A stretch of DNA of 64,000 nt from Bacteroidales bacterium (GTDB lineage Bacteria; Bacteroidota; Bacteroidia; Bacteroidales; JAHJDW01): positions 6,255 through 70,254 of the forward strand of contig JBAZBZ010000011.1 in NCBI GenBank assembly GCA_041671145.1, written 5' to 3'. Every line of letters begins with the position of its first letter. Position 1 is the first letter of the stretch. The position numbers and the translations under genes are program-made. A model generated the notes under the pieces. It worked only from the letters and a program-made list of their open reading frames with translations, searched no databases and had not been told where the DNA came from. Below are positions 10,903 to 60,605 of this stretch, one piece after another.

Positions 10903-10930
10903 TAGTCATTTGTCAATAGTCGTTAGTAAA
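10903..10930. repeat. heptamer array x4
   Basis: tagtcat ttgtcaa tagtcgt tagtaaa, immediately after the M23 peptidase stop. Confidence 0.7.
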
Positions 10931-10965
10931 AACTTCGAAGTTTATTATTCGATGTTTGATTTATT

Positions 10966-10973
10966 TATCTTTG
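10966..10973 (+). promoter_or_regulatory. -7 box TATCTTTG upstream of nnr
   Basis: TAnnTTTG match 20 nt upstream of 10993. Confidence 0.45.
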
Positions 10974-10992
10974 TATTTTCAAAATCTTTGCC

Positions 10993-12507
10993 ATGAGAAT
11001 TCTTTCTGCAAAACAAATCAAAGAGGCCGATGCATATACGATAACAAACGAGCCGGTAGAATCCATTGACTTGATGGAACGTGCCGCAAAGGCATGTTCG
11101 GGGTGGCTCACAGATAACTTCAATAAAAATTATAAAATAAAAATATTCTGCGGATGCGGAAATAATGGAGGTGATGGATTGGCTGTTGCCCGCCTTTTAT
11201 CTGCAAAAAAATATAATGTTGAGGTTTTTATTATTAAACATTCCGACAAGTTTTCGGATGATTTTAAAATAAATGAACAACGTTTGAAAAAAATCAAAAC
11301 AGTTAAAATAACCGCCATTTCATCAAAAGAACAAATTAAAAATTTTAAATGTGAACAAAAGTGCGTTATTATTGATGCAATTTTCGGTTCGGGTTTATCC
11401 AAACCTGTTGAGGGATTAGCTGCCGATGTTATTTATATAATGAATAAAACAGAAGCAGTGAAAATTGCAATTGATGTTCCATCGGGTTTATTTTGTGAAG
11501 ATAATTCAAAAAATATTTTTAATAATATTTTTAAAGCCGACTATACTCTCACTTTTGAATTGCCGAAATTATCTTTTATGTTTCCGGAAAATGCCGAATA
11601 CATTGGCGATTTTGTGGTGTTGCCTATCGGCTTAAATTCTGATTTTATAAATAAAGCAGAAACGCAAAATTTTATTTTAACATTTGGAGATGTAATACCT
11701 AATCTTAAAAAACGTAAGAAATTTGCACATAAAGGAAATTTCGGACATGCTTTGCTTTTATCGGGAAGTTATGGAAAAATTGGTGCCGCTGTGCTGGCTT
11801 CAAAAGCATGTTTACGCACCGGTGTGGGATTGCTGACCGCACATATTCCGAAGTGCGGCTATAACATTTTGCAAACCGCTATTCCCGAAACAATGCTCGA
11901 CATTGATGAAAATGAAAATATTATTTCATCTTTTATTGATATTTCGAAATATTCTGCCGTTGGTATTGGTCCCGGAATAGGCACTGAAAAAGAAACTCAA
12001 AGCGCTTTAAAGCTGATAATTCAGAATGCAAGCTGGCCATTGGTTTTTGATGCAGATGCAATAAACATTATTGCCGAAAATAAAACTTGGCTTTCATTTT
12101 TACCATTGAATTGCATATTCACTCCCCATCCGCGTGAGTTCGAACGATTATGCGGAAAGCCAAAAAATGAAGTAGAACGCCAGCAAATACAACGCGATTT
12201 TACGTATAAACATCAGGCATACCTTGTTTTAAAAGGCGCGCACACTTCCATAACCTGTCCCGATGGAAATATTTATTATAATTCTACGGGAAATCCAGGA
12301 ATGGCTACAGCCGGCAGCGGTGATGTGTTGACAGGAATGATTTTATCATTGGTGGCTCAAGGATATTCTTCAAAGGAAGCATGCATTATCGGAGTTTATC
12401 TGCATGGGCTGGCAGGTGATATTGCAGCCGAAGAAACCGGCTATGAATCTCTCATAGCAGGTGACATTATCGAAAATATCGGGATGGCATTTAAAATGCT
12501 GAAATAA
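10993..12507 (+). CDS. nnr: bifunctional NAD(P)H-hydrate epimerase/dehydratase
   Basis: YjeF_N motif GCGNNGGDGLAVAR. C-terminal carbohydrate-kinase part KGNFGHALLLSGS...GMATAGSGDVLTG. Confidence 0.9.
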   Translation: MRILSAKQIKEADAYTITNEPVESIDLMERAAKACSGWLTDNFNKNYKIKIFCGCGNNGGDGLAVARLLSAKKYNVEVFIIKHSDKFSDDFKINEQRLKKIKTVKITAISSKEQIKNFKCEQKCVIIDAIFGSGLSKPVEGLAADVIYIMNKTEAVKIAIDVPSGLFCEDNSKNIFNNIFKADYTLTFELPKLSFMFPENAEYIGDFVVLPIGLNSDFINKAETQNFILTFGDVIPNLKKRKKFAHKGNFGHALLLSGSYGKIGAAVLASKACLRTGVGLLTAHIPKCGYNILQTAIPETMLDIDENENIISSFIDISKYSAVGIGPGIGTEKETQSALKLIIQNASWPLVFDADAINIIAENKTWLSFLPLNCIFTPHPREFERLCGKPKNEVERQQIQRDFTYKHQAYLVLKGAHTSITCPDGNIYYNSTGNPGMATAGSGDVLTGMILSLVAQGYSSKEACIIGVYLHGLAGDIAAEETGYESLIAGDIIENIGMAFKMLK

Positions 12508-12536
12508 ATATAATTTGTTCGTTAACAAAAAATGAT

Positions 12537-12574: not shown

Positions 12575-12928
12575 ATGAACATTTTTATTGGAAGTCTTCC
12601 TTATAGTTTAGAAGAATCTAAACTGGGGGAGTATTTTGAAAACTACGGTGAAGTTTCCTCAGTTAAAATCATTACTGATAAATTCACAGGAAGAAGTAAA
12701 GGTTTTGGATTTGTTGAAATGCCAGATGATGAGCTAGCTCAAAAAGCAATTGATGAATTAAATGGTACTGAAATCCAGGGACGTTCTATTGTTGTTAATA
12801 AAGCGGAAGAGAAAAAAGAAAGAACCGGAGGAAGCGATTCCAGAAGAGGAAATGACCGCGGAGGTTACAATAAAGGCGGTTATAATAAAGGAAATAGCAG
12901 AGACGGTAACAGACGATCTAGTTATTAA
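12575..12928 (+). CDS. RRM-type RNA-binding protein with Gly/Arg/Asn-rich tail
   Basis: RNP-2 NIFIGSL and RNP-1 KGFGFVEM. Tail RRGNDRGGYNKGGYNKG. Confidence 0.85.
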   Translation: MNIFIGSLPYSLEESKLGEYFENYGEVSSVKIITDKFTGRSKGFGFVEMPDDELAQKAIDELNGTEIQGRSIVVNKAEEKKERTGGSDSRRGNDRGGYNKGGYNKGNSRDGNRRSSY

Positions 12929-16506: not shown

Positions 16507-17513
16507 GGTATTGAAAATGGAATTTTATTTTTTCCTGATAAAAATTTATCGGTATAAATTATTGAAAATTCAAAACCTCCATTGAAATTAGTTGCCGGAT
16601 GCAGCTTTGAATTATTAATATCATAGCTAACGCAGACATCCCATTTTTCATATTTAATTCCTGTAATTACAATTATTGCATCTGATGTGCGATAAGCGGC
16701 GCCAATTGTAAAATTCAAAAAAACTCCGTTAGTGGTTTTAAAGATATATTCCAATCTGCTGCCAAGATTCAATTCTTTGGCTTTATTCTGCATAATAAAT
16801 AATATATCTGGTTTTATATTTATTTTTTCGTTAATGACTTTTTTCGCATTGAAGTATAATCCAAATAATAATGGCATTGGTGCAATATTTCCCGATAACG
16901 ATTCATTGGGCTTTGTTATGTGATGTACGGAAAATCCTCCGTTAATATTTAGATTACCGGGCTTTTGCAATTGGTAGGAAATCCCCGAACTCATATCGAA
17001 TTTACTGATGTTAAAATTCAAAGTGTTTTCTCCGCTTTGAATATTTGTGTTGAAATCACCAGCTAAATACTGACTTTCGAAAGATAATTTCGTAAAATCA
17101 ATTTTCTTCTGAAAAAAACCGGCTTGAAATCCTATTGATATTGAATGTTCTTTTTTTGCATCAAGTTTTTTGCAATATGATGTGCTTAACATAAACTGGA
17201 AATTACTCAAATGACCTTCACCGCTTCTGTCGTTAATAATTATCAGTCCTGCACCTATAGCATCATCTTTTAACCGGTCCTCAAGAAATTTTGAATCGAA
17301 AGAAATGGAGGAAGTTATATAAGGAACGGAAATGCTGTTCCATTGATTTCTGTAATTAGTAATAGCTCTCATGTTTCCATCAATATTTCCTGTGAGGGCT
17401 GGATTTAAAGACAGGGGAGAGTTATAAAATTGTGAAAAATGAATATCCTGACAAAAAATAAAATCAGAAACAAGCAATAAAAATAATAATAATATTTTAT
17501 TTGCATAGGGCAT
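16491..17513 (-). CDS. type IX secretion system membrane protein PorP/SprF family
   Basis: Signature QDIHFSQFYNSPLSLNPALTG. Start placed at the ATG at 17513 (MPYANKILLLF signal peptide), because the longer ORF-track N-terminus is encoded by heptamer repeats. Confidence 0.8.
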   Translation of the reverse strand: MPYANKILLLFLLLVSDFIFCQDIHFSQFYNSPLSLNPALTGNIDGNMRAITNYRNQWNSISVPYITSSISFDSKFLEDRLKDDAIGAGLIIINDRSGEGHLSNFQFMLSTSYCKKLDAKKEHSISIGFQAGFFQKKIDFTKLSFESQYLAGDFNTNIQSGENTLNFNISKFDMSSGISYQLQKPGNLNINGGFSVHHITKPNESLSGNIAPMPLLFGLYFNAKKVINEKINIKPDILFIMQNKAKELNLGSRLEYIFKTTNGVFLNFTIGAAYRTSDAIIVITGIKYEKWDVCVSYDINNSKLHPATNFNGGFEFSIIYTDKFLSGKNKIPFSIPCIRL

Positions 17514-17537
17514 AGGGCATAGGGCATGGGGCGTACA
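17503..17537. repeat. heptamer array (GCATAGG-like)x5
   Basis: gcatagg gcatagg gcatagg gcatggg gcgtaca, at the 5' end of the PorP/SprF gene. Confidence 0.85.
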
Positions 17538-22540: not shown

Positions 22541-22672
22541 ACTGTGATAATTCAAAGCTGTATTACCCATTAATTTTAATTTCTCTTTTTAATAAGGCAC
22601 CATAAATATAGTAAAGTTGCCTGAGAAAAATATTTTTTTAACCGGTAGGTTTTTAGCATAGTATTACTAAAA
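22541..22672 (-). pseudogene. relic of the ECF sigma gene 5' end (promoter + leader + ATG joined to codons ~85-94)
   Basis: 22581..22672 matches 26381..26465 with about 6 mismatches. 22543..22570 matches 26098..26126 inside the sigma CDS (MVNTALNYH). The ~240 bp between these blocks is absent. Confidence 0.6.
22593..22621 (-). promoter_or_regulatory. ECF-type promoter-like motif P3 (variant -10) inside the sigma-gene relic, upstream of the giant PKD gene
   Basis: Minus strand reads GGCAAC-N15-GTGCCTTA, one T-to-C change from P1. About 256 nt upstream of the start at 22336. Confidence 0.35.
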
Positions 22673-24059: not shown

Positions 24060-24087
24060 TAAGACACTAACTTTTAAAAAGGTTGCC
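24060..24087 (-). promoter_or_regulatory. ECF-type promoter-like motif P2 upstream of the PKD/T9SS type A gene
   Basis: Minus strand reads GGCAAC-N14-GTGTCTTA. Shares the plus-strand 14-mer GTTGCCTGAGAAAA and 10-mer AATAAGACAC with P1. 42 nt upstream of the ATG at 24017. Confidence 0.45.
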
Positions 24088-24110
24088 TGAGAAAATAAAA
24101 AAAGAATTTA

Positions 24111-26371: not shown

Positions 26372-26393
26372 TAACTTATATTTCTCTTTTTAA

Positions 26394-26422
26394 TAAGACA
26401 CCATAAATATAGTAAAGTTGCC
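26394..26422 (-). promoter_or_regulatory. ECF-type promoter-like motif P1 upstream of the sigma/anti-sigma operon
   Basis: Minus strand reads GGCAAC-N15-GTGTCTTA, ending 22 nt before the sigma ATG. No TAnnTTTG box nearby. Confidence 0.5.
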
Positions 26423-26473
26423 TGAGAAAAATATTTTTTTAACTGGTAGTGTTTTAGTATGAGACAACCTCTG

Positions 26474-27922: not shown

Positions 27923-28058
27923 GCGGATTTATCCTTATTAATTCATCAACTTTTTTATTTTTAGATACGAGCTGCAAGCTTCGAGCCAAGAGAAAGAAAG
28001 AAAATAACAACAAATAAAGAATCTTTTAATTTTTTAATCTTTCAATCTTTTATTTTTT

Positions 28059-28721
28059 TTAAATATTTAAGTAATTCATAAAAGAATCATATCTTTCTTT
28101 TAAATCATCATAAAAATTATCTTCACCGAAAGATGCTTTTATAACATAATCGTATCGCGTAAATGTCTTTAAAATGGGAGTTATATCGGTTCTGTTAACT
28201 TTAAGAGTAACATCAATTTTTGTAGAATCGGGATGTGCTGTTACGAACATATTCAGAATTTTTGCATCATTGGATTCCACAATCTGCGAAATCTGTGCAA
28301 GTGTATAGTCGTTGCTGTTTAACTCAAGGATTATTATTCCACCGGGATTTTGAATTGCAGTGAATTCGGCGAATTTTATTAAAAGAGTTTTTAAAGTTAT
28401 TGCTCCCAGATAATTATTTTTATCGTCGAGCACCGGAATTAATGATAATTGTAGGAACGACATTAATTTTAAAACATCAAGTATATGCTGACTTCTCAAT
28501 ACATAAGGTTTGGTTAATGAAAGTGAATGATTTCCGAGTGGTTCATCTGGCTCGTTGATATCCAGAATATCATTTTCGGAAATCAATCCGAGAAACTGTT
28601 CATTATTAACAATAGGAAGATGTGTAACTTTATATTCCTCCATCATAGTTAATGCTTTGTTGGCATTATCCGATGTTTTCAGTGAAGGGATTGAATATGA
28701 TATTAATTCTTCTGCAATCAT
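28059..28721 (-). CDS. CBS domain pair protein
   Basis: Two CBS-like units (VTHLPIVNNEQFLGLISENDIL and LIPVLDDKNNYLGAITLKTLL). Confidence 0.7.
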   Translation of the reverse strand: MIAEELISYSIPSLKTSDNANKALTMMEEYKVTHLPIVNNEQFLGLISENDILDINEPDEPLGNHSLSLTKPYVLRSQHILDVLKLMSFLQLSLIPVLDDKNNYLGAITLKTLLIKFAEFTAIQNPGGIIILELNSNDYTLAQISQIVESNDAKILNMFVTAHPDSTKIDVTLKVNRTDITPILKTFTRYDYVIKASFGEDNFYDDLKERYDSFMNYLNI

Positions 28722-28752: not shown

Positions 28753-28787
28753 GCTGCAAGCCAAGAGCTACGAGCTACAAGCCAGAT
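28753..28787. repeat. heptamer array (GCYRMRA)x5
   Basis: gctgcaa gccaaga gctacga gctacaa gccagat. A related array, gctgcaa gcttcga gccaaga, lies at 27971..27991. Confidence 0.8.
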
Positions 28788-28886
28788 ATTTTAATCTTTT
28801 AATCTTTATTTTTTTTATCTTTTTAAATAATATATTACACAAACATACATTTTTTTTTAGTTTTGTAATTAATTTTATTAAAAAAG

Positions 28887-29609
28887 ATGACAAAGTTAAG
28901 TATCAACATAAATAAAATAGCAACACTCCGAAATGCAAGAGGAGGAAATCTGCCAGATGTTATTAAGGTTGCTATTGACTGCGAAAGATTCGGTGCCGAT
29001 GGAATTACCGTTCACCCGCGTCCCGATGAGAGGCACATTAAATATAAAGATGTTTATGATTTGAAAGATGTGTTAAAAACCGAATTCAATATTGAAGGAT
29101 ATCCATCAGAAAAATTCATAAAGCTTGTTTGCAATGTTAAACCTGCTCAGGTTACTTTAGTTCCCGACCCTCCCGATGCCATCACTTCAAACGCAGGATG
29201 GAATACAAAATTGAATAAAAAATTTCTATCAGATATTATTGAGAAATTTAAAAATGAAAATATAAGAGTTTCAATATTCATTGACCCTATTGTGGAAATG
29301 CTCGAAAATGCTGTGGAAACCGGTACCGACAGAATTGAATTATATACCGAAGCTTTTGCAAAAGATTTTTATTCCAATAGGGAAAAAGCAATAAAGCCAT
29401 ATATAGAAGCTGCAAAATATGCCAACGAACTCGGATTCGGAATTAACGCAGGACATGATTTGAATATCGACAATCTGAATTATTTCGCAAAAAATATCCC
29501 ATCTCTCCTCGAAGTTTCCATAGGTCATGCTTTAATCTCCGATGCTATTTATTTTGGATTGGAAAATACAATTAAAATGTATTTGAATAGTTTAAAGTTT
29601 AAGGTCTAA
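28887..29609 (+). CDS. pdxJ: pyridoxine 5'-phosphate synthase
   Basis: [32 protein letters not shown] and GHDLN motifs. The last 6 codons and the stop lie inside a 32-nt repeat. Confidence 0.9.
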
Positions 29610-29620
29610 AGTTTAAAGTT
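29589..29620 (+). repeat. 32-nt TTTAAAG-type element, copy A
   Basis: AGTTTAAAGTTTAAGGTCTAAAGTTTAAAGTT. Contains the pdxJ stop codon. Confidence 0.9.
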
Positions 29621-29756
29621 TTGCGAAATTTCGCATTTGTCAATATTTCTTGGCAGTTTGCAGTTGAATATTTTTTTAAGTTTCTCGCAGAGCCGCAAAG
29701 TTTTTCTTTGTTTGACTTTTGACCCGTTAGGCAATTGTTAATGTTGAATGACCAAT

Positions 29757-29788
29757 AACTTTAAACTTTAGACCTCAAACTTTAAACT
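29757..29788 (-). repeat. 32-nt TTTAAAG-type element, copy A' (inverted)
   Basis: 31/32 match to the reverse complement of copy A. 5 nt past the C25 peptidase stop. Confidence 0.9.
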
Positions 29789-29792
29789 CTCT

Positions 29793-32522
29793 TCATTTTC
29801 GAACAACTATTTTTTTTACAAACTTTTTAGTATCACTTTTAATTTCCATGAAGTATATACCATCAGCAATGCTTTTGAGGTCAATGGAATTAGTTTGTAT
29901 TTTATTGACAAGAATTTTATCCGAATATATTATTTCGCCGGTAAGATTATAAATTTTAATATTTACCGTTTCAACATTTTTAAACAAAAAATCCATAGTG
30001 AATTCGCCGTTGTTGGGATTTGAATAAATTGCAACTTCGCTTGTATCGCTGCTATACCTGACGCACCCGATAACAGTTTCACCCATTCTGGAACATCCAT
30101 TTGCATCAGTTACGGTAACAGAATAATCTCCGCAATGTAGATTAACCGCAACCATATTGGTTTGCATCGGTTTCGTATTCCATGAATATGTGTATGGCAA
30201 TGTTCCTTCATTCACATTGACCAACAAAGACCCATCATCGCAAGTCAGACAAAGAGATTTTTTTATATTGAAATCTGTAATTTTGGGCACGGAATTCACG
30301 GTAATAATGGAGTTTCCTGTAACTTGATTTAAAGCAGCATCTGTAATTGTAACCGAATATGTAGCAGTAGTATCAGGAGTTACAGTAATTGTGGATGTGG
30401 TTTGAGTGTTGCTCCATGAGTAGCTGTAATAATTCGCACCGCAAATCGCATTTGCAGTTATAGTTGACGTTTCTCCCCTGCAAATAGTATCTTTTGCACT
30501 AAAATTAACAGACATTACATTGCAAACAAAAAATTCTCCGATATATGGAACATAATTATATGCAGTACAGCAAACTCTAAATGTATCGCCAAGATTTAAC
30601 ACGGGAAGGGTGAAGGATACGCTTCCACTTGATATTGTTCCTGTTCCGATAATGTCATAATTATCTTTTCTGGTCAAAGCAACACTTGCACCTTCAATAG
30701 GGCAATTAACATCAAAAGATAATGTTCCGGGTAATATGCTTGGGAAATGGTTTGCTGTAAGTACTTTCGGAGTATCAGTTCTGAGCATCAATGATGGGTC
30801 GCCGAAAATTGTCCATGTGTCTGCCATTAATGTATCGGAATAAGCATCAAGCATTTTGTTTATGCCGTTAAAGGAAATTCCACCGAAAGTATGTTTTATA
30901 TTGCCTGAATATGACTCGGTAAGAATATTATTCATTTCATCTTGTCCTGCCATTGGCGGGTCCCATGATTGATTAACAGTTGACATTAATGCAGCTACAG
31001 CTCCTTTCGGATTTCCTGAAATATCAACTGCTCTTAGCCATGCTTCGGCAAAGCATGTCTTTCCGTCGAAATCGCCATTTATACAGGCAACAGAAAAAAT
31101 AAAAGGCAGACAACTTATATTATTCAAGGTACTATTAATATAAGAATTACTGAATCCCGAAGTGGTCCATGCATAGGTTGAGCCATGCCCCGTATAATTT
31201 ATAATTCCTGCTCCATTATTAATTTCCGAAGCGACCATTGATGCTGATGGATTGTTGGCAGCATCCTGCTCGTCATGGCTTCCATCGAACAGTTCGGCAC
31301 AATAATGATATTTGTAATTTATTAGTATATTTCTGATAGCACGTTCATGTTGCCAGTCGTATTCACTATTATCGCCAGGACCTTGGTCGGAACCAATGCA
31401 TAACCCTTTTCCGAAATCACCTGTAATTACCGGATTTTTTTCATACTCCAGAAATCTTCTCACCTGTGTTTGCACATGCGAAATATTTTCTGCTGATATA
31501 CGTCCTACAAGTATTTCAGAATAATGGTCGTTTCCTGTAATGTAGCCATATATATTGTCAGAAGTATTTCCCGAATTGTCGTTTGAAGGAATCTGAGCAG
31601 CATCGCCCACAAGAACAAGAAAAGCTAGTCCTTTGGTATTATAATAATTAGCAACAAATGTTTTAATATCCGATGAAGTGTTTCCAATGGAATCAATATT
31701 TACTATTTCACAGGAAATTCCTTCGGTTTTTTTCCAGTTGACGAAAGGTTGCATTTCAGCCATAAACTGTCCGTAGCAAATTACAAGCATATTTCCCTTT
31801 TCAGTAACCGGAGTATATTTTAAGGAGTTGTAATTCAGAAAATGTCTTGAATATAAATTGTTAAATTCCTCAACAATTTTATTTGTATTTTTTGTTTTGT
31901 GAAATTGATTTTTTCCGTTTTTACTTTTTGATGAAATTTGAATTGTTAAATCAAGATATACACGCAGGATTTTTGTAACCGGATTATACCGAAAAGGATA
32001 AATAACAATTGTTTGACCGCGGTAATCCCTTAGAATATAGGGTTCTTTCAAATCAACAAGTTTTGCAGGAAAAAATTCATTTTTCGAATATTGTTCTCCG
32101 TATTTATAAGGAACATCGTCAGGATTGACATTGCGAAGAAGATTTCCTTTTGAGGGAGCTATCAAAATGTTAGGATAATCTTTATATTTTGAAGAGATGA
32201 CTTCCGCCCGCATTTCATCCATATCAGGAATAAGAATTGATGAAGTAAACTTAACTAAATCGGGTGCACCGGCAATAAGTATGGAGGTTGCGTTTTCGGT
32301 ATTAATAGAATATTCGGTTCTATTGTTTACTTTTCTTTCAACAAATGTAAAATCATCAAGCGAATAATTTATAATAGTCGTTGTTAAGTTTGATGATACT
32401 AATTCTATTTTTCCGGAATTTGCTTTTTTGGAGTTCGAATACTTAATGCAAAAAGAAATATTTGCATTAAGTAATAATGCAATTACAATAAAAAATATTT
32501 TTATAATCTTTCTGTCAAACAC
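29793..32522 (-). CDS. peptidase C25 (gingipain-like) family protein with SprB-type repeats and T9SS type A sorting domain
   Basis: LVLVGDAAQIPS, catalytic-type YTGHGS and FSVACINGDF. CGDYSVTVTDANGC repeat. C-terminal NPNNGEF...GIYFMEI CTD. Confidence 0.75.
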   Translation of the reverse strand: MFDRKIIKIFFIVIALLLNANISFCIKYSNSKKANSGKIELVSSNLTTTIINYSLDDFTFVERKVNNRTEYSINTENATSILIAGAPDLVKFTSSILIPDMDEMRAEVISSKYKDYPNILIAPSKGNLLRNVNPDDVPYKYGEQYSKNEFFPAKLVDLKEPYILRDYRGQTIVIYPFRYNPVTKILRVYLDLTIQISSKSKNGKNQFHKTKNTNKIVEEFNNLYSRHFLNYNSLKYTPVTEKGNMLVICYGQFMAEMQPFVNWKKTEGISCEIVNIDSIGNTSSDIKTFVANYYNTKGLAFLVLVGDAAQIPSNDNSGNTSDNIYGYITGNDHYSEILVGRISAENISHVQTQVRRFLEYEKNPVITGDFGKGLCIGSDQGPGDNSEYDWQHERAIRNILINYKYHYCAELFDGSHDEQDAANNPSASMVASEINNGAGIINYTGHGSTYAWTTSGFSNSYINSTLNNISCLPFIFSVACINGDFDGKTCFAEAWLRAVDISGNPKGAVAALMSTVNQSWDPPMAGQDEMNNILTESYSGNIKHTFGGISFNGINKMLDAYSDTLMADTWTIFGDPSLMLRTDTPKVLTANHFPSILPGTLSFDVNCPIEGASVALTRKDNYDIIGTGTISSGSVSFTLPVLNLGDTFRVCCTAYNYVPYIGEFFVCNVMSVNFSAKDTICRGETSTITANAICGANYYSYSWSNTQTTSTITVTPDTTATYSVTITDAALNQVTGNSIITVNSVPKITDFNIKKSLCLTCDDGSLLVNVNEGTLPYTYSWNTKPMQTNMVAVNLHCGDYSVTVTDANGCSRMGETVIGCVRYSSDTSEVAIYSNPNNGEFTMDFLFKNVETVNIKIYNLTGEIIYSDKILVNKIQTNSIDLKSIADGIYFMEIKSDTKKFVKKIVVRK

Positions 32523-38481: not shown

Positions 38482-39474
38482 ATGTCCGAATCTAATTTTA
38501 TTGATTACGTAAAAATTTTTTGTAAATCGGGAAAAGGCGGAGGTGGTTCCGTTCATTTGCGCCATGAAAAATCAAAACCGAGAGGCGGTCCCGATGGCGG
38601 AAATGGCGGCAGAGGCGGGCATGTTATTATTAAAGGCAATAAACAATTGTGGACACTTCTTCATTTAAAATACACAAAACATATTACCGCAAAAGACGGA
38701 GGAAAGGGGAGCCATAATTTATGTACAGGCGCTGATGGAAATGATGCCATTATTGAAGTTCCTCTTGGCACAATAATTAAAAACTTCGAAACAAATGAAA
38801 CGGAACTTGAAATTACTGAAGACGGCGAAACAAAAATTTTTATGTCGGGTGGGAGAGGAGGCATGGGAAATCATTATTTCAGAACAGCAACTCATCAAAC
38901 TCCAAGATTTGCACAGCCGGGAGAAAAAGGAACTGAAGGATGGAAAATATTTGAATTAAAATTATTGGCTGACGTTGGTCTGGTTGGATTTCCTAATGCA
39001 GGGAAATCAACATTGCTGTCTGTATTGTCAGCAGCAAAACCTGAAATTGCCGATTATCCTTTTACTACACTTGTTCCTAATTTGGGAGTGGTTGCCTACC
39101 GTGAACACAGGTCATTTGTAATGGCTGATATTCCAGGTATCATAGAGGGGGCAAGCGAAGGGAAAGGACTTGGGTTGCGATTCCTTCGACACATCGAAAG
39201 AAATTCTCTGCTTTTATTTATTGTTCCTGCAAATTCGGAAAATATAAAAAAAGAATATGAGGTTTTGTTGAATGAATTAAAAACTTATAATCCCGAACTT
39301 CTTGATAAGAAGAGAATACTTGCAATTTCAAAATCGGATTTGATAAATGAAAATGAAATGAAAAAAATTAAAAAAAATATTCCGAAAATTCCATTTGTTT
39401 TTATTTCTTCGCATACTGGTTTTGGACTCATGGAATTAAAAGATGTTTTGTGGAAAGAATTGAACAATGAATAA
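38482..39474 (+). CDS. obg: GTPase Obg/CgtA
   Basis: [18 protein letters not shown] Obg fold. G1 [10 protein letters not shown]3 DIPGIIEGA. Confidence 0.95.
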
Positions 39475-39523
39475 TTAACAAATAATAATTAATAATTTGT
39501 TGTCAGTTGTTTTATTTTTCTCT

Positions 39524-39568
39524 GCGTCTCTGCGAGAAACCAAAAAAAATATTTAACCGCAAAGACGC
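39524..39568. repeat. GCGTCTCTGCG / CGCAAAGACGC hairpin
   Basis: 10/11-bp stem with a 23-nt A-rich loop. The reverse complement of the same 11-mer, CGCAGAGACGC, also occurs at 670..680. Confidence 0.6.
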
Positions 39569-39615
39569 CAAGTCGCCAAGTTGCTTGGCAATTGAGCAAT
39601 TCAACAATGTTTTTA

Positions 39616-39650
39616 CTAATGACTAATGTCTTATGACTGATGACTAATTT
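39616..39650. repeat. heptamer array (CTAATGA-like)x5
   Basis: ctaatga ctaatgt cttatga ctgatga ctaattt. Overlaps the PAP2 start codon. Confidence 0.8.
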
Positions 39651-41159: not shown

Positions 41160-41205
41160 AATAACTTTTTTTTCTTTGTGCCCCTTAGTGCTATCTTTTG
41201 TGCGA

Positions 41206-41234
41206 CTTTGTGGTTGATTTTTTTTACCACAAAG
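41206..41234. repeat. CTTTGTGGT / ACCACAAAG hairpin
   Basis: 9-bp perfect stem with a T-rich 11-nt loop. Imperfect arms over about 41170-41275 carry repeated CACAAAG words. Confidence 0.7.
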
Positions 41235-41343
41235 GCACACAAAGGTTTTCGCAAAGTACCACAAAGGGCTTTTAAGATAATTTTATTGTTTTATACTAAA
41301 CACACGATAAATTTGTATATTTTGAAATCACTATATCAAAAAA

Positions 41344-42186: not shown

Positions 42187-42257
42187 ATATTTAAATATAA
42201 AAATGACTAATTGTTATACTACAAATGGTTAAAAATTCAGCAATTTGACAATTCTTG

Positions 42258-42283
42258 AAACTTTAGTCCTTAAACTTTAAACT
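42258..42283 (-). repeat. TTTAAAG-type element, copy C (inverted, 26 nt)
   Basis: AAACTTTAGTCCTTAAACTTTAAACT, 25/26 match to the reverse complement of copy A. Overlaps the stop of the PduO-type gene. Confidence 0.85.
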
Positions 42284-42794
42284 CTTTTCTGGCAAGAACA
42301 AAAAGATAATCGGAAAGGCGATTTAGATATTTTAATATAAATTCATCAACTTTTTCTTTTTCGGAAAGATTAATGGTAATACGCTCTGCTCTGCGGCATA
42401 CTGTGCGTGCAATATGACAATGTGAAGATATTTGGTTCCCTCCGGGAATTACAAATTCTTTGAGTGCAGGTAATTTTTTTTCTATTTTATCAATTTCTTT
42501 TTCAAGAAAATTCAAGTCATTTTCTTTTAAAAAATTAATATTTGGTTTTTTTATTTTTTTTGATTTATCATAACCGACAGCAAGTGCTGACTGGATAGCG
42601 AAAAGATTTTTTTGAATTACAAATAAATTATTTTTTGAAATTTTATCAATTTTCTGAGAGCAAATTAAACCGAGCCACGAATTGAGTTCGTCAACACTTC
42701 CTAAAGCATCAATTCTATGATGACATTTGGAAACACGCAATCCCCCAATTAATGAGGTTTTTCCTTTGTCTCCGGTTTTTGTGTATATTTTCAT
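42270..42794 (-). CDS. PduO-type ATP:cob(I)alamin adenosyltransferase
   Basis: MKIYTKTGDKGKTSLIGG..V.K N-terminus and helical bundle. The last codons (EFKV) and the stop lie inside a 32-nt repeat copy. Confidence 0.85.
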   Translation of the reverse strand: MKIYTKTGDKGKTSLIGGLRVSKCHHRIDALGSVDELNSWLGLICSQKIDKISKNNLFVIQKNLFAIQSALAVGYDKSKKIKKPNINFLKENDLNFLEKEIDKIEKKLPALKEFVIPGGNQISSHCHIARTVCRRAERITINLSEKEKVDEFILKYLNRLSDYLFVLARKEFKV

Positions 42795-42811: not shown

Positions 42812-43555
42812 TTAGTCGTTGCTTTCAACTGCTAACTTCAGTTTTTCATTTTCAAAAGTTCTTATATCGTTATTTTTTTCATCACTGATAATCATGCCGT
42901 CGTTTAGTTTGATTATGCGGTGGGCATATTTAGCAATATCTGGCTCATGAGTAACAACAATGATTGTGTTTCCGCTTTTATGAATTTCTTCAAAAAGTCC
43001 CATTATTTCCACTGAAGTTTTTGAATCGAGATTACCTGTTGGTTCATCGGCAAGCATTATAGCAGGTGAATTTACCAGAGCCCTTGCAATTGCAACCCTT
43101 TGTCGCTGTCCGCCTGAAAGCTCATTCGGTTTATGTTTAATCCTGTCGGTAAGCCCCACGTTATTCATGACTATACTTGCTCTTTCAATTCTTTTATTTT
43201 TATTAAGCCCTGCATAAACAAGTGGCAGCATAACATTTTCAAGAGCAGAAGAACGGGGCAATAGATTAAACGTTTGGAAAACAAAGCCCACTTGCTTGTT
43301 TCTTACTTCAGCAAGTTCGTTGTCGCTCATTTTGCTCACATTAATTTCGTTTAAAAAATATTCACCTGAAGTAGGTGTATCAAGGCATCCGAGAATATTC
43401 ATAAGTGTTGATTTTCCTGAACCAGACGGACCCATTAATGCAACGTATTCATTTTTATAAATAGCGAGATTTATCAAACGCAACGCCCTGATGATTTCAG
43501 TTCCGACTTTGTAATTTTTTACAAGATTTTTTAAAACTATCAATTCTTCTGCCAT
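42812..43555 (-). CDS. ABC transporter ATP-binding protein (MacB/LolD-like)
   Basis: Walker [10 protein letters not shown], signature [15 protein letters not shown] and Walker B MLADEPT. Confidence 0.9.
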
Positions 43556-43566
43556 TACTTTTAAAA

Positions 43567-43598
43567 AGTTTAAAGTTTAAGGTCTAAAGTTTAAAGTT
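43567..43598 (+). repeat. 32-nt TTTAAAG-type element, copy D
   Basis: 32/32 identical to copy A. 12 nt upstream of the minus-strand ABC ATPase start. Continues into five more heptamers up to 43631. Confidence 0.9.
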
Positions 43599-43631
43599 CG
43601 AACAACGAACCACAAACTACGAACCACAAAC
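43569..43631. repeat. array of nine consecutive degenerate heptamers
   Basis: tttaaag tttaagg tctaaag tttaaag ttcgaac aacgaac cacaaac tacgaac cacaaac. Confidence 0.85.
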
Positions 43632-43649
43632 ATAATTCTGCAAATTTAG

Positions 43650-44432
43650 TTAAAATCTGATAATAAAATTTTGTTTTGTTATTCCTTTTCTGAAAAAAAT
43701 CAAACCCATGAAAAACAAATCAATTGATATGCTAACCTTCTCGTGATTTTTGATATATTTCCATGCATTTTCCATTTCATCAGACCAGTGAATATCATCA
43801 AAAACAAATAGCGAATTATCGTTTGCTTTTTCCAGACATTGCTCAAAATAGCTTATTGTCGGTTCGTAGCGATGATTGCCATCAAAAAAAACATAATCTG
43901 TGTTTTTAATATATTTCAATATTTGAGGTAAAACACGAGTAAATTCACCGGTGATTACATCAATTTTCTGACCTGAAATCTTGAAATTATTTCTTGCTAT
44001 TGCAGCAGTATTTTCACAACCTTCAATTGTAATTACTTTTGGATGATAGTTTGGTAGTGCCTGATAAAGGGTGCTGATGCCAAGTGATGTTCCCAATTCC
44101 AAAATTGTTTTTGGCTTGAAAGAATCTACAAGTCGAAATAATAAAGCACAGTATTTTTGGGACTTTGCGGATTTTTTTGCAATGTCGGAAATTTTTCTTT
44201 TTGTGTTATTTCCTTCCGAGCCGCTTGCCCCATAATCAATGCAGTCAATAATTTCATTTGAGGCAAGCATTGAATTTCTTATGTTTTTAATACTTTTAAA
44301 AATCGAAGAATCTGTTTTTTTATTAATTACGTTTGCAAATAAATCATACACAAAAGGAGAATGAATGGAATGACCTCCAGAAGAAGTTAAGAGATAACGA
44401 AAATATTTTAATGCAAAACAAAAAGTAGTCAT
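43650..44432 (-). CDS. class I SAM-dependent methyltransferase (O-methyltransferase-like)
   Basis: ILELGTSLGIST motif I and FFDGNH. Start placed at the ATG at 44432, because the longer N-terminus is encoded by heptamer repeats. Confidence 0.6.
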   Translation of the reverse strand: MTTFCFALKYFRYLLTSSGGHSIHSPFVYDLFANVINKKTDSSIFKSIKNIRNSMLASNEIIDCIDYGASGSEGNNTKRKISDIAKKSAKSQKYCALLFRLVDSFKPKTILELGTSLGISTLYQALPNYHPKVITIEGCENTAAIARNNFKISGQKIDVITGEFTRVLPQILKYIKNTDYVFFDGNHRYEPTISYFEQCLEKANDNSLFVFDDIHWSDEMENAWKYIKNHEKVSISIDLFFMGLIFFRKGITKQNFIIRF

Positions 44433-44441
44433 TGGGGAAAA

Positions 44442-44531
44442 GTTAATAGTTAATCGTAAATCGTAAAAAAAAATTACAAATTCAAAATTTCGCAAATTAT
44501 TTTAAATCCTAAATCCTAATTTCTAAATTTT
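44442..44531. repeat. long degenerate heptamer-periodic tract
   Basis: gttaata gttaatc gtaaatc gtaaaaa ... aaatcct aaatcct aatttct aaatttt. Confidence 0.7.
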
Positions 44532-44681
44532 ATAATCTTCAGTCAAACTTAAAATTTAGTTTTACGCAATTATACAATTTTTTTTAATCTTAATGTAAAT
44601 ATTGTGTACTTTTGGGCAGGTTAAATAAAAGGTTGTTATTAGCCAACAAGTTTTTTATTATTAATTATTCATTTACTTTAA

Positions 44682-46917: not shown

Positions 46918-47019
46918 CAGAATGTCCGATTTCTTCGTTACTCTCGTTTTAAAATCAGTCATTTACTTTAGTAAACTCCTGATTTTAAAACTTCGAAAGC
47001 CTCGAACTCGGACATTCTG
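46918..47019 (+). repeat. three-helix structured intergenic element, copy E1
   Basis: Outer 12-bp perfect stem (46918-46929 with 47008-47019). Middle 13-bp perfect stem (46946-46958 with 46979-46991). Apical TTTAC/GTAAA stem. Conserved TCATTTAC and GTAAACTCC. Confidence 0.75.
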
Positions 47020-47048: not shown

Positions 47049-47111
47049 CTAGTTAGTTCTTAGTTCGCAATTTTACTAATGACTTATGACTCTAAACTGA
47101 AAACCGAAAAC
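47049..47111. repeat. degenerate heptamer-periodic tract
   Basis: ctagtta gttctta gttcgca attttac taatgac ttatgac tctaaac tgaaaac cgaaaac. Confidence 0.7.
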
Positions 47112-47116
47112 TTATT

Positions 47117-47614
47117 TTATTTCGACTTGGTAATTATTAAATATACAGCAAGCGCAATACAGATAATAAGAATGCATGTAATTGCAATATTCCAGAAATC
47201 GTGCCCTCTTCCTCCTCTCGGTGCTGCTTTTGTATCAGATTTTTTCACATCCTGCTTGTAATTTTGTTTTTTTACATCATTAGAATTTGAAACTGAAAGT
47301 TTTTTTGTTGCTTTTTTTAAAATAAAAGGAATTAATGCTTCTTCGTGAGAAGTTGAAATGCTATTTTTATTTTCAGGAATATATGAAAGTAAATCGTTGT
47401 TCTTATCTGGAACATAATTTTCATCTTCTGCTGTAATTACTTTAGATTTTTCTGGTATTTTATTGCTGTTGCAATAATTTGCTCCGTCGCTGTTTACAGC
47501 AGCTTTCTGAAGTTTGTCATATCTTTTTTGTGTAAATTGCTTTTCATGCGAGCAAGATGCAATCAAAAAAAAGCAAACTGAAATTGAAATTAATCGTAAT
47601 GCTTTATTTTTCAT
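47117..47614 (-). CDS. hypothetical lipoprotein with C-terminal TM helix
   Basis: Lipobox LIASC. Low-complexity middle region. C-terminal hydrophobic helix. Confidence 0.4.
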   Translation of the reverse strand: MKNKALRLISISVCFFLIASCSHEKQFTQKRYDKLQKAAVNSDGANYCNSNKIPEKSKVITAEDENYVPDKNNDLLSYIPENKNSISTSHEEALIPFILKKATKKLSVSNSNDVKKQNYKQDVKKSDTKAAPRGGRGHDFWNIAITCILIICIALAVYLIITKSK

Positions 47615-50493: not shown

Positions 50494-50535
50494 GTTTAGC
50501 AACTACTTGCGACTTAATACTTACGACTTGCGACT
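50494..50535. repeat. heptamer array (NNNNACT)
   Basis: gtttagc aactact tgcgact taatact tacgact tgcgact. Confidence 0.75.
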
Positions 50536-58884: not shown

Positions 58885-58887
58885 AGA

Positions 58888-59004
58888 GCATCTCTAAAAA
58901 CTCGCCTCTCTTCGTTGGACTTCAAAATCCAAATCCTCATTAACACACAGTTAACTCCTGTTGGAATTTCTTGTCCGCCTCGATATCCGAGTTTTTAGAG
59001 ATGC
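58888..59004 (+). repeat. three-helix structured intergenic element, copy E3
   Basis: Outer 17-bp perfect stem (58888-58904 with 58988-59004). Middle stem GGAC..TCCAA with TTGGA..GTCC. Apical TTAAC/GTTAA stem. Conserved TCATTAAC and GTTAACTCC. Confidence 0.7.
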
Positions 59005-59068
59005 CCTAAAGTAACCGGTACTGGTATGTGGCATTCAGTAAAAAACTCTAAGCTCCTTGCTCTATGCC

Positions 59069-60307
59069 CTAATTCGTACTTAAATTTTTAACATCGAAGA
59101 AATTGCTTTTTCTTAGTTGTCGTATAGGATACCATGAGGTAAGTAGAGCAATTAAAAATACTGTTATAAAAACATATATAAAATCCTTTATGTGTAATTC
59201 TACGGGATAAGTATTTATAACAAATGTACCGGTTGCCTGAATTTTGATTAATCCGAATTTTTGCTGAATAATGCAGATTAAAGCACCAAGAGCAAGTCCG
59301 GCAATCGCTCCGAGCAAATTTATCATCAATCCTTCTATTAAAAATATTCTGCTTATTAATTTATTGCTTGCACCAAGCGATTTAAGAATCATCGCATCTT
59401 TTTTCTTTTCAAGTATGAGCATAGTCAGCGAGCCGATAATATTAAATGTGGCGATTATCAATATAAAACTTAAAATAAGAAACACTGCCCATTTTTCATT
59501 TTTCATGACTTTGTAAAGCAATTTATGCTGCTGGTAGCGATTTTCGACAATAAATCCGCTGCCAACTAATTTCTGAATTTCCTTTTGTACATTTTCCTTA
59601 TCTGTATTTTTTGAAAGTCCAATTTCTATTGCAGTAATATCTTCTTTGTATTCGAGCAATCTGCGGGCAAACCGAAGCGGAACCAAAACATACTTTATGT
59701 CAAAGTCCTGCTGAATAGAAAAAACTCCTGTAGGAAGAATTGCCAGATTATTGAAAGCACTCATCTGGTTGTAAATATTTTTTGTTCGACGCGGAACATA
59801 AATACTCAGTGGTGTAGAAAAATCCTTTAAATTTAAAGAAAGAAAATATGCAATTCCCTGTCCTACAATAGCAAAGTTGTTGCTGTCAGATTCAAGTGTA
59901 AATGAACCGCCAACAATCATTGTATCGAGCTTGCTCATTTTCTTAAAATCACTTTCAACTCCTTTTATTGTGGCAATGTATTGTTTGTCGTGGTACTTCA
60001 AAAGTGCATTTTCTTCAAGTATATTTGTGTAAAAAATAACTCCATTAATTTTTTTAATCTTTTCAATCGGTATATTATGTGGATTAAATGTTTTACCGAG
60101 TTTTGCAGTAATTTTTATATCAGGGTCGAACGAATTGAAAAGTGAAATCACAACACTTTCGAAACCGTTGAAGACAGAAAGAACAATTATCAGAGCCATT
60201 GTTCCTACCATAACTCCGATAACTGAAATCAATGAAATAACATTTATTATATTGTGTGATTTCTTTGAAAAAATATATCGCTTCGCTATGAAAAATGAAA
60301 AATTCAA
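59069..60307 (-). CDS. FtsX-like ABC transporter permease (LolC/E family)
   Basis: N-terminal FFIAKRYIFSKK, large periplasmic loop and C-terminal FtsX 3-TM module. Confidence 0.8.
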   Translation of the reverse strand: MNFSFFIAKRYIFSKKSHNIINVISLISVIGVMVGTMALIIVLSVFNGFESVVISLFNSFDPDIKITAKLGKTFNPHNIPIEKIKKINGVIFYTNILEENALLKYHDKQYIATIKGVESDFKKMSKLDTMIVGGSFTLESDSNNFAIVGQGIAYFLSLNLKDFSTPLSIYVPRRTKNIYNQMSAFNNLAILPTGVFSIQQDFDIKYVLVPLRFARRLLEYKEDITAIEIGLSKNTDKENVQKEIQKLVGSGFIVENRYQQHKLLYKVMKNEKWAVFLILSFILIIATFNIIGSLTMLILEKKKDAMILKSLGASNKLISRIFLIEGLMINLLGAIAGLALGALICIIQQKFGLIKIQATGTFVINTYPVELHIKDFIYVFITVFLIALLTSWYPIRQLRKSNFFDVKNLSTN

Positions 60308-60605
60308 ATTCAGAAGTTTAATTGTTATCAGGCAAAAGTAAGTAAAGTTTTCTTAATATATTTTTACAAGGAATGAATTTTAAAAGTTTGTGGTTTGTCG
60401 TTTGGTAATATGTATGAAATAAATTCCTATTTTTAAATAAAAAATTACTTGTTGTTATTTATTGCAATATTTCGGCAATTTTTTCTCAAGGCATACAGAG
60501 TTTTATTAGCTCTCAATAACATTTTTTAACTATAAACAACAAACATTTTAAACGACAAACGTATTATAAAAGTGAGAAGTTAATAATGGTTAAAATATAT
60601 TTAAT

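Follow-up and report, generated by a model that had tools for sequence, protein, structure and literature searches.

Heptamer repeat arrays in Bacteroidota spacers: a fixed polarity relative to gene ends and a stop-to-start foldback architecture

What are the short arrays of seven-nucleotide words that lie between the genes of a Bacteroidota chromosome, and why do they keep a set orientation toward the stop and start codons beside them? The question is raised by a stretch of contig JBAZBZ010000011.1 (the window), 64 kb of ordinary chromosomal DNA from an uncultured, AT-rich (~32% G+C) member of the Bacteroidota. One groundwater metagenome run, the sole one to contain the window, has 0.99 of its sampled words in Logan contigs; no RNA run was found for it. 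Pfam analysis identified housekeeping and type IX secretion genes (PorP/SprF, Por_Secre_tail and CHU_C) and no transposase, integrase, recombinase, invertase or Y1-transposase domain within the window. Comparison loci, labelled L with a number, were drawn from a species-representative genome collection and were selected by the 31-nt unit E described below, selected by AAAGTTT words, or centred on obg. The 80 obg-centred loci (~900 kb) served as the unbiased control set, and 69 Bacteroidota loci among them were scored for lag-7 self-match. Gene ends in the comparison loci were taken from simple open reading frame (ORF) calling.

A period of seven is strongly present in the spacers. Over 7351 nt of window spacers, the self-match at lag 7 was 0.358 compared with 0.318 ± 0.0055 in dinucleotide shuffles (z = 7.4), with echoes at lag 14 (z = 3.8) and lag 21 (z = 3.5); lag 8 was likewise raised (z = 2.8). 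Coding DNA of the window gave period 3 only and no period-7 signal. A fixed scanner returned 12 period-7 arrays, 10 of them intergenic, versus 0-3 arrays for each other period from 4 to 12. The arrays are short (3-6 units) and degenerate. They occur in 13 of the 39 spacers and cover 7.2% of spacer bases; shuffled spacers gave 2.1 ± 1.4 spacers with arrays and 0.6% ± 0.4% of bases, other periods covered 0.3-2.1% of spacer bases, and period 7 covered 0.36% of coding DNA. An earlier note on this DNA had proposed a genome-wide test for an excess of period-7 signal over shuffled and coding sequence; within the window that excess was indeed found. Its statement that the spacers are built from such arrays was too strong, because two thirds of the spacers have none and only ~7% of the bases are covered. 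The note had also pointed to related genomes, and heptamer arrays were found there across Bacteroidota, patchily: the intergenic lag-7 z exceeded 3 in 10 of the 69 unbiased loci, reaching 13 in a Paludibacter metagenome-assembled genome (MAG). Dozens of unrelated words were catalogued, most of which occur once; clustering of the words by single linkage merged everything and was uninformative. The arrays are thus real and non-random, and form a widespread, fast-evolving class of heptamer repeats that is phylum-wide yet patchy.

All-against-all comparison of the window spacers together with pattern searches revealed words that recur, contrary to the idea that each locus has a word family of its own. 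(ACTAATG)n gave 8 overlapping matches at 5 loci, where 0.34 were expected by chance; GCTNNNA, ATCGAAY and AATAATT words also recur. The most prominent recurrent element is E, a 31-nt unit (GTTTAAAGTTTAAGGTCTAAAGTTTAAAGTT) with six copies in the window and 0 expected by chance. E consists of four and a half heptamers, AGTTTAA AGTTTAA GGTCTAA AGTTTAA AGTT, with a fixed deviant unit in the middle. Its six copies are as follows.

29590 to 29620, plus strand: E copy 1, GTTTAAAGTTTAAGGTCTAAAGTTTAAAGTT, 0 mismatches; overlaps the last 6 codons and the TAA of pdxJ (28887 to 29609); left foldback arm.
29757 to 29787, minus strand: E copy 2, 1 mismatch; starts 5 nt past the stop of the C25-peptidase gene (29793 to 32522, minus strand); right arm.
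38022 to 38052, plus strand: E copy 3, 3 mismatches, TGTC variant; 6 nt past the adk stop (37440 to 38015); left arm.
38443 to 38473, minus strand: E copy 4, 2 mismatches; the plus strand reads AACTTTAAAC... and ends 8 nt before the obg ATG (38482); right arm.
42252 to 42282, minus strand: E copy 5, 4 mismatches; overlaps the stop of the cobalamin adenosyltransferase gene (42270 to 42794, minus strand).
43568 to 43598, plus strand: E copy 6, 0 mismatches; on the minus strand a C-form ~10 nt upstream of the ABC-ATPase ATG (42812 to 43555, minus strand).

The left end of E touches a gene end every time, either a stop (pdxJ, the C25 peptidase, adk and the cobalamin adenosyltransferase) or a start on the opposite strand (obg and the ABC ATPase). 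In pdxJ and the adenosyltransferase gene the Pfam domain ends just before E, and E itself encodes the final 6 or 4 residues, respectively, and the stop; the earlier remark that arrays abut start and stop codons is borne out in this literal sense. Four of the copies are paired into two foldbacks. One (29590-29787) lies between the convergent genes pdxJ and the C25 peptidase; the other (38022-38473) spans the entire 466-nt spacer between adk and obg, adk being directly upstream of obg at 38482. The arms are 31 nt long with 1-5 mismatches between them, and the interiors measure 136 and 390 nt. Copy 5 is a solo arm whose sense strand carries the G-form past a stop codon.

The two arms of such pairs come in a fixed order. 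Among inverted pairs of the AAAGTTT family with arms no more than 600 nt apart, the arm with G (AAAGTTT) came first in 42 and the arm with C (AAACTTT) in 0. This holds on both strands, because reverse complementation keeps the G-then-C order. Pairs made from ~20 other heptamers obeyed the same rule, the first arm having more G than C in 21 of 23 (21:2), and hairpins inside arrays were G-first by 58:9. Ordinary perfect hairpins outside arrays had no bias of this kind: G-first to C-first counts were 217:253 for AT-rich stems, and GC-rich stems leaned the other way (59:86). A sequence-specific transposase end is therefore not the whole cause of the polarity, since unrelated words follow it. Thirty-six foldbacks could be classified by their genes: 30 lie in tandem spacers, 5 in convergent spacers, all G-first, and 1 in a divergent spacer. 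For 17 of the 30 tandem foldbacks, the stop and the start each lie within 20 nt of the nearer outer end, so that the whole gap between the genes is one hairpin. Many inverted pairs have loops of only 6-40 nt.

The clearest G-first geometry was seen where a long (GTTTAGG)n array faces (AACCCTA)n, at L231 1404-1772 (Chryseobacterium paridis) and in L181 near 2870. The resemblance of this head-to-head arrangement to the plant-type telomere heptamer TTTAGGG is probably a coincidence.

The same polarity is evident relative to gene ends. Beside start codons the sense strand carries the C-form (AAACUUU) in 88 cases and the G-form (AAAGUUU) in 18; beside stop codons the G-form prevails by 89 to 32. 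Partnerless arrays taken alone gave 44:13 for the C-form at starts and 51:16 for the G-form at stops (Fisher p = 3e-9). A typical array ends 4-6 nt before the ATG or begins no more than 2 nt past the stop. Local base composition cannot produce this polarity, because the skew near gene ends is too weak: the 30 nt before starts have G 0.093 and C 0.100, and the 30 nt past stops have G 0.142 and C 0.112. This fixed polarity toward gene ends and the stop-to-start foldback architecture, both missed by the earlier note, are the most informative features of the arrays.

Folding calculations distinguish the two strands. The single strand of 29580-29800 folds at -68.7 kcal/mol with its arms paired, compared with -37.4 ± 4.1 kcal/mol for shuffles, and the arms of the adk-obg foldback pair in both the minimum free energy (MFE) and the centroid structures (z = -3.6). 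The G-form of E (33 nt) folds on its own at -5.2 kcal/mol as DNA (z = -3.1) and -5.0 as RNA, with the deviant unit as the loop, and the C-form reaches only -1.7 as DNA and -1.1 as RNA. Likewise, (AAAGUUU)5 gave -5.7 versus -1.3 for (AAACUUU)5. Over all words, the sense strand of start-side arrays was less stable than the antisense strand by 75:33, and that of stop-side arrays was more stable by 101:45. The duplex energy of an arm with its own partner averaged -29.4 kcal/mol compared with -25.9 kcal/mol with a non-partner (permutation p < 2e-4).

E is not confined to the window. An exact 24-nt core of E was present at 62 loci in species-representative genomes, almost all labelled Bacteroidota and with unrelated flanks; the carriers include Chitinophagaceae, Prolixibacteraceae, Draconibacterium, Fibrella and Roseivirgaceae. 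Identity over all 31 nt was seen at 21 loci, which belong to at least 8 genomes and to more than one family (Chitinophagaceae, Prolixibacteraceae and others). When the middle four bases were freed, at least 120 loci were retrieved; ~84% of the new ones are labelled Bacteroidota and a few belong to Patescibacteria or other phyla. The 80 obg-centred loci contain 3 E-like copies in ~900 kb, compared with 6 in the 64-kb window, and a scan of viral contigs found none. (AAAGTTT)n and its variants were detected in Prevotella, Muribaculaceae, Bacteroides, Paludibacteraceae, Flavobacterium, Chryseobacterium, Pedobacter, Cytophagales and Lentimicrobiaceae; these loci also carry many other heptamer arrays, and several words of the window recur there. 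In the source metagenome, Logan contigs end exactly at E copies, one contig covering 38446-43596, and other contigs join E to its inverted copy E' via loops of 2-34 nt, indicating many more E foldbacks in the groundwater community.

Three further observations concern E and its relatives. First, AAAGTTT-type foldbacks fill tandem spacers in a Patescibacteria MAG (L152 4882-4950) and in Candidatus Buchananbacteria (L158 1583-1653); the heptamer class may thus extend beyond Bacteroidota, unless these contigs are mis-binned. Second, the rRNA operons of Draconibacterium contain an E-like/E' pair in the spacer between tRNA-Ala and 23S rRNA (L057 4217-4398; also L041, L059, L030 and L052). The pair flanks ~120 nt with a tRNA T-arm-like fragment (GGGGTTCGATTCCCC), and the insert is present in several rRNA operon copies. 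Third, in 7 of the 62 loci selected by E, small genes of PF05635, the 23S rRNA-intervening-sequence protein family, stand closely enclosed by E-type arrays:

L012 3396-3785: PF05635 gene.
L043 2344-2730: PF05635 gene.
L016 5629-6015: PF05635 gene.
L018 3289-3675 and 5412-5765: PF05635 genes.
L021 1332-1718: PF05635 gene.
L039 4411-4797: PF05635 gene.
L061 363-557 and 2207-2458: PF05635 genes.

In L012, L043 and L016 the PF05635 gene forms the interior of the E...E' pair. Neither the window nor ~1.8 Mb of other loci contains a PF05635 gene. We take the product to be an Avd-like four-helix bundle, and the bracketed genes recall the inverted-repeat-flanked ORF of Leptospira 23S intervening sequences.

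Comparison of related loci indicated that the arrays turn over rapidly and that some foldbacks are multicopy. In an 8-kb locus of a Lentimicrobiaceae MAG (L215), a 109-nt foldback is repeated whole, with its arms and loop, in at least 7 copies at 93-100% identity; the copies are spread over 4 spacers with up to three in tandem. The same 109-nt foldback occurs in four other MAG loci (L144, L151, L214 and L237). Between L144 and L151 the orthologous foldback is ~98% identical, whereas flanking coding DNA is ~80-85% identical as estimated by eye and the whole alignment 67%. L017 and L045 differ by an exact 7-nt indel within an array, and the (TTAATTG)n array just ahead of obg counts 5 units in L120 versus 7 in L136. 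Past the orthologous obg stop of the same two loci, (TTTAAGR)n in L120 stands against (ACAAGWC)n in L136, with 81% identity over the alignment, the coding part being higher by eye. Contigs of mouse-gut metatranscriptomes span an array of Muribaculaceae MF13079 without a break; within this 24-nt array a related strain differs by a 17-nt insertion and two substitutions, versus 22 other substitutions over 1.36 kb. For a rumen Prevotella locus, no RNA runs were found. No heptamer-unit variants were seen among the source-metagenome contigs. As a separate observation, a GTAGAGACG...CGTCTAC hairpin stands beside the heptamer arrays upstream of obg (L120 5860-5940 and L136 5780-5960) and resembles the 'double-foot' repetitive extragenic palindrome (REP) of RAYT (REP-associated tyrosine transposase) subclass 2.4; L136 has a 92-nt tandem duplication of the array together with this GTAG...CTAC hairpin.

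We favour a combined account, to which we assign a probability of roughly one half: slippage-prone arrays of the kind known as short tandemly repeated repetitive (STRR) sequences, of which some families have spread as foldbacks resembling REP doublets (REPINs) or bacterial interspersed mosaic elements (BIMEs), with orientation filtered by mRNA structure. Short heptamer arrays would gain and lose units by slippage and be replaced quickly, surviving only in non-coding DNA and growing right up to the stop and start codons. Some word families would have become discrete dispersed repeats, of which E is the clearest, a quasi-palindrome with its GGTCT middle as the loop. E...E' doublets would act like REPIN/BIME-type foldbacks, copied as units, multicopy within genomes and patchy in the phylum, and would sit in transcribed spacers between tandem or convergent genes.

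The orientation would be filtered at the level of mRNA, with selection on structure as the cause of the polarity. We infer this because Bacteroidetes lack Shine-Dalgarno pairing, initiation in Flavobacterium johnsoniae is tuned by mRNA structure (PMC6847099), and G.U wobble is the sole physical asymmetry between the strands. The G-strand, self-folding through G.U pairs, would be tolerated or favoured just past stops; the C-strand, which cannot fold alone, would be the form permitted just before starts, where Bacteroidota without Shine-Dalgarno pairing need unstructured leaders. The G-arm-first order in tandem spacers would then arise because the filter acts on both sides. Polarity in convergent spacers needs a further reason. 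A candidate is exposure to Rho, to which an arm rich in C and poor in G would be open if it were the first to emerge in untranslated nascent RNA; a C-arm emerging second would be captured at once by the G-arm. In tandem spacers the paired arms would place the upstream stop and the downstream start at the base of one long stem, and a terminating ribosome might melt the stem base and free the next initiation region, a form of translational coupling.

Several results weigh against parts of this account. The paired C-form leader would be buried in a stem of about -25 to -30 kcal/mol, which conflicts with an unstructured leader unless upstream translation opens the stem. The MFE asymmetry between the strands is not independent evidence, since it is correlated with G>C. 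In the sense orientation, arm mismatches were G.U as often as A.C (47:47), so maintenance of RNA base pairs as such finds no support here. Simple ORF calling may have inflated the gene-end statistics of the words other than AAAGTTT, because words containing G carry TAG, TGA or ATG. Mobility in particular is weakened: no presence/absence (empty-site) pair was found; no flanking direct repeats that could be target-site duplications were seen at 24 inspected foldbacks; and no transposase or RAYT was found in the window by Pfam or in six-frame translations of 258 loci by the HUH+Y signature. Nor are the two foldbacks of the window classical copies of a miniature inverted-repeat transposable element (MITE), their interiors being unrelated. 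Finally, the window is only 64 kb and its relatives are distant, Obg being at most 72% identical to its best species-representative relatives, all of them Bacteroidota. A protein search seeded with E. coli RayT returned enterobacterial proteins only.

In-place slippage, binding platforms, terminators and invertons are each less well supported than the combined account. The first holds that all arrays, E included, are purely mutational microsatellites that arise where they stand by slippage preferring 7 nt, are neutral, and owe their regularity to where non-coding DNA is available. The arrays are indeed short and degenerate, most words occur once, unit-number indels exist, L120 and L136 have different words at the same orthologous position, and the signal is sporadic in the unbiased loci. 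Among the long simple repeats of prokaryotes, moreover, heptanucleotides are described as the most frequent (Mrazek 2007, as summarized in the introduction of PMC4679880). Slippage in place does not readily yield, however, the identical 31-mers, deviant middle unit included, that stand at six sites of the window and in at least 8 distant genomes, nor complete multicopy 109-nt foldbacks with their loop. Polarities of 42:0 and 21:2 and the orientation bias at gene ends cannot come from a nearly unskewed local composition. We consider slippage alone a doubtful explanation.

Alternatively, the arrays could be cis-regulatory platforms, each bound by several copies or domains of a single-strand nucleic-acid binder with a ~7-nt footprint (ribosomal protein S1, cold-shock or RRM type), exerting post-transcriptional control at translation starts and mRNA 3' ends. 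The tight position 4-6 nt before the ATG, the strand-specific orientation relative to genes, transcription of the arrays in Muribaculaceae, an RRM_1 gene in the window and the conservation of E across families are all consistent with this idea. A similar role has been raised for heptamer arrays of Beggiatoaceae and Nostoc; binders of the S1, cold-shock or CsrA type were proposed for TAACTGA repeats (MacGregor 2015, PMC4679880), and Nostoc heptamers near start codons affect reporter expression. Dozens of unrelated words nevertheless misfit one specific binder, orthologous sites differ in their word, the flanking genes are functionally incoherent (pdxJ, adk, obg, the ABC ATPase and the C25 peptidase), and the arrays are patchy across genomes. 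This makes binding platforms rather unlikely as the general explanation.

A bolder proposal, which we rate as quite unlikely, is that the arrays are not passive repeats: a phylum-wide system, so far undescribed, would have left them as its footprint or would use them as working parts. Such a system might be operon punctuation, in which G-first foldbacks join neighbouring stop and start codons for ribosome handover or gating of re-initiation, and multimeric single-strand binders may read the 7-nt register. It might instead be an extension of DNA ends, tandem heptamers being added 5' to 3' onto both sides of a break in a telomere-fusion-like geometry; the 7-nt period, the sharing of one word by both arms and a G-first polarity that does not depend on the word would then all follow from a single step.

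Another reading, an improbable one, makes the foldbacks ordinary transcription terminators, or stems for RNase III processing, whose composition from repeats is incidental. The long stable stem at 29580-29800, the positions past stops and between convergent genes, and the E pair in the tRNA-Ala/23S spacer of Draconibacterium would suit such a function. The stems are AT-rich with no obligatory U-tract, though; mismatches show no G.U preference over A.C; GC-rich hairpins of these loci have the opposite polarity (59:86 G-first, versus 58:9 for hairpins inside arrays); and 30 of the 36 foldbacks are in tandem spacers, flush with the next start, where termination would harm. An Rfam covariance-model scan of the whole window at E ≤ 1 gave three chance-level matches, none of them at arrays. 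Highly improbable, lastly, is that the inverted pairs are recombination sites of promoter-switching invertons: Bacteroidota are rich in invertons, and 31-nt inverted repeats do flank 136- and 390-nt segments here, but genes for an invertase or recombinase are absent from the window, one pair has convergent genes on its two sides, where no promoter is needed, many pairs have loops of 6-40 nt, and no inverted joint was among the source-metagenome contig joints listed, in which rare variants would be missed.

Apart from E, the window contains the following arrays. Degenerate period-7 arrays are present at every locus that the earlier note had quoted, the one at 60386-60404 being weak.

10904 to 10927, minus strand: (ACTAATG)n copy; the plus strand reads TAGTCAT TTGTCAA TAGTCGT TAGTAAAAAC; directly past the stop of the M23 peptidase gene (9622 to 10902).
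38065 to 38081, plus strand: (ACTAATG)n copy within the adk-obg foldback, beside the left E arm.
38399 to 38415, plus strand: (ACTAATG)n copy within the adk-obg foldback, beside the right E arm.
39615 to 39648, plus strand: (ACTAATG)x4.9; runs into the predicted start of the PAP2 gene (39640), with an ATG in each unit.
47075 to 47112, plus strand: (ACTAATG)n copy, then AAACTGA AAACCGA AAACTT; the array region is 47049-47112.
43599 to 43632: (CGAACMA)x4-5 array directly past E copy 6.
17503 to 17532, plus strand: (GCATAGG)x4.3, the purest array (95% matches, score 53).
27971 to 27992, plus strand: GCTGCAA GCTTCGA GCCAAGA array, a direct repeat of the array at 28753.
28753 to 28786, plus strand: GCTGCAA GCCAAGA GCTACGA GCTACAA GCCAGA array; word family also in L035, L067, L136 and L215.
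38356 to 38393, plus strand: (ATCGAAY)n, with ATCGAAT units at 38353-38389; word family also in L027, L058 and L067.
44435 to 44470 and 44498 to 44534, plus strand: GTTAATA/GTAAATC and TAAATCC arrays, upstream of the methyltransferase gene.
50505 to 50535, plus strand: (ACTTACG/CGACTTA)x4.4, ~100 nt upstream of recA.
60386 to 60404, plus strand: GTTTGTG GTTTGTC GTTTGGT, 2.7 units, score 31, weak and not significant alone.
39461 to 39500, plus strand: AT-only (AATAATT)n overlapping the obg stop; similar arrays at 5866-5903 and 6910-6928.

The region 43562-43627, at E copy 6 and the (CGAACMA) array, holds nine heptamer units of two words. On its minus strand the 47075-47112 array lies past the stop of the gene at 47117-47614 and has the G>C orientation. 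The sense (minus) strand of the 17503 array reads (CCTATGC)n, between the stop of a 1582-aa PKD/CHU_C gene and the PorP/SprF gene. The arrays at 27971 and 28753 flank a CBS-domain gene (28059-28721), and period-8 (AATCTTTT)n arrays come next after them, at 28020-28052 and 28789-28823, respectively. A 28-nt exact direct repeat joins 38084-38111 and 38334-38361. The arrays at 44435-44534 sit in a TTG-start ORF extension of the methyltransferase gene (43650-44495, minus strand). The earlier remark that arrays inflate the N-termini of ORFs was reasonable, as the 17503 and 44442 arrays lie in the longest ORFs of PorP/SprF and the methyltransferase, respectively.

Other features of the window are recorded here in their own right. 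Further period-8 arrays stand beside heptamers at 39519-39534 and 39558-39581 (TCTCTGCG twice and CGCCAAGT three times). A 40-nt module rich in CTTTGTG/CACAAAG occurs at 34487-34527, 38217-38257 (reverse complement) and 41237-41257, with 90% identity between two copies; the copy within the adk-obg foldback adjoins a CTTTGTGGTTA...TAACCACAAAG hairpin. A weak palindromic match to the mir-3524 model was obtained on both strands at 41178-41262. A 70-nt repeat, 97% identical and not heptamer-periodic, is found at 22579-22648 and 26380-26449, downstream of a PKD gene with a type IX secretion tail and of a gene for an extracytoplasmic function-type sigma factor, both on the minus strand; its 14-nt core occurs again at 24082-24095, and the repeat may be a shared terminator or regulatory module. 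Between convergent genes at 46946-46991 lies a 46-nt imperfect palindrome, GTTTTAAAATCAGTCATTTACTTTAGTAAACTCCTGATTTTAAAAC, which is probably a multicopy element because contig depth in the source metagenome jumps there to ~190 from ~10-20 around it. The window also encodes a stand-alone RRM_1 RNA-binding protein of 117 aa (12575-12928), a type of candidate single-strand RNA binder; to our knowledge, Bacteroidota are without Hfq, ProQ and CsrA. A ParE-family toxin gene (109 aa, 3578-3907) follows a 412-nt gap (3166-3577) that could hold an antitoxin gene too small for the ORF cut-off applied.

How neighbouring genes are coupled in Bacteroidota operons is poorly understood. Here is an array class that fills the exact gap from stop to start and follows a word-independent orientation rule, from gut Prevotella and Muribaculaceae to Flavobacterium and groundwater lineages. 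The arrays are either a very successful genomic parasite shaped by Shine-Dalgarno-less translation or a part of that translation mode, and answers obtained here could inform the decades-old question of what cyanobacterial STRRs do. In practical terms, the arrays cause false N-terminal extensions and false stop positions in gene calls, E copies break short-read assemblies, and the arrays may serve as fast strain markers.

Comparison with known systems places the arrays between several of them. The cyanobacterial STRRs, named as the closest analogue in the earlier note, likewise consist of short heptamer tandems; they too lie in spacers, at numerous loci of a genome and in several word families, and to that extent the analogy stands. 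It fails in that the phylum and the dominant words differ, and in that the main family here is a fixed, dispersed 31-nt unit with inverted doublets, strict polarity and ends flush with stops and starts. The words that Mazel et al. reportedly described in 1990 (CCCCAGT, TTGGTCA and CAACAGT, the last as STRR3) are in none of the window arrays; (CAACAGT)n arrays are present in the related loci L215, L144 and L151. We know of no STRR description with strict-polarity, stop/start-flush inverted doublets and found none in the literature searched.

The earlier note was aware of no equivalent in Bacteroidota, but TAACTGA arrays had already been reported in five Bacteroidetes, including Flexibacter litoralis, Paludibacter, Gramella and Aequorivita, mostly just upstream of start codons and with 'other heptamer direct repeats' in the same spacers (MacGregor 2015, PMC4679880). 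Those repeats, known from Beggiatoaceae, cyanobacteria and Bacteroidetes, are likewise mostly intergenic, forward heptamers a few nt from start codons, and the near-word AAACTGA stands in the window at 47094. That study, however, concerned a single word with one 'indirect' repeat set, and described no foldback architecture, G-first rule or stop-side class of arrays. Our literature search for heptamer repeats in Bacteroidota or AAAGTTT strings returned only this paper and general repeat papers, and a 2026 genomic-language-model preprint on intergenic features makes no mention of these arrays. The long simple sequence repeats of prokaryotes (Mrazek 2007, as summarized in PMC4679880) share units of 5-11 nt with 7 the commonest, an intergenic bias and a proposed origin by slippage; the arrays here differ in having 3-6 degenerate units, some dispersed as fixed units, and a strong orientation toward genes. 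Intrinsic terminators have a GC-rich stem and a U-tract, unlike these AT-rich stems of opposite polarity flush with the next ATG.

MITEs and eukaryotic foldback (FB) transposons likewise have terminal inverted repeats around a short non-coding interior, and the inverted arms of FB transposons are made of tandem sub-repeats. The present foldbacks have no target-site duplications and no matching transposase, the interiors in the window are unrelated, and the arms vary in unit number; a shared interior, as in MITEs, is seen only in the 109-nt family (L215, L144, L151, L214 and L237).

REP, BIME and REPIN elements share the most with the foldbacks: quasi-palindromic units of 20-40 nt, inverted hairpin doublets with a fixed polarity on both strands, a preference for tandem and convergent spacers with divergent ones avoided, multiple copies, and rapid turnover at orthologous sites. 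They differ in that the stems here are AT-rich and heptamer-periodic rather than GC-rich, and in that many unrelated words take the same polarity. 'Double-foot' REPs have a 5' GTAG...CTAC 3' polarity, whereas the heptamer arrays have no GTAG or CGTC head and E starts with (A/T/G)AGTTT; GTAG...CTAC double-foot hairpins were absent from the window and rare in the comparison loci, and no RAYT was found beside any array in the window or the 258 loci. RAYT subclasses 2.4 and 2.6 are typical of Bacteroidetes and cyanobacteria, and 2.6 has 'atypical secondary structures' (Quentin 2018, PMC6006769); in the supplement of that paper, subclass-2.6 REPs are mostly short GC hairpins, with one 122-nt Belliella foldback whose arms are roughly heptamer-periodic. 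The word-independent G-first polarity, the stop-to-start foldbacks and the cross-family identity of E appear to be undescribed in the literature searched. Judged by its sequence organization, the main family of the window is closer to REP/BIME/REPIN or foldback elements than to plain STRRs.

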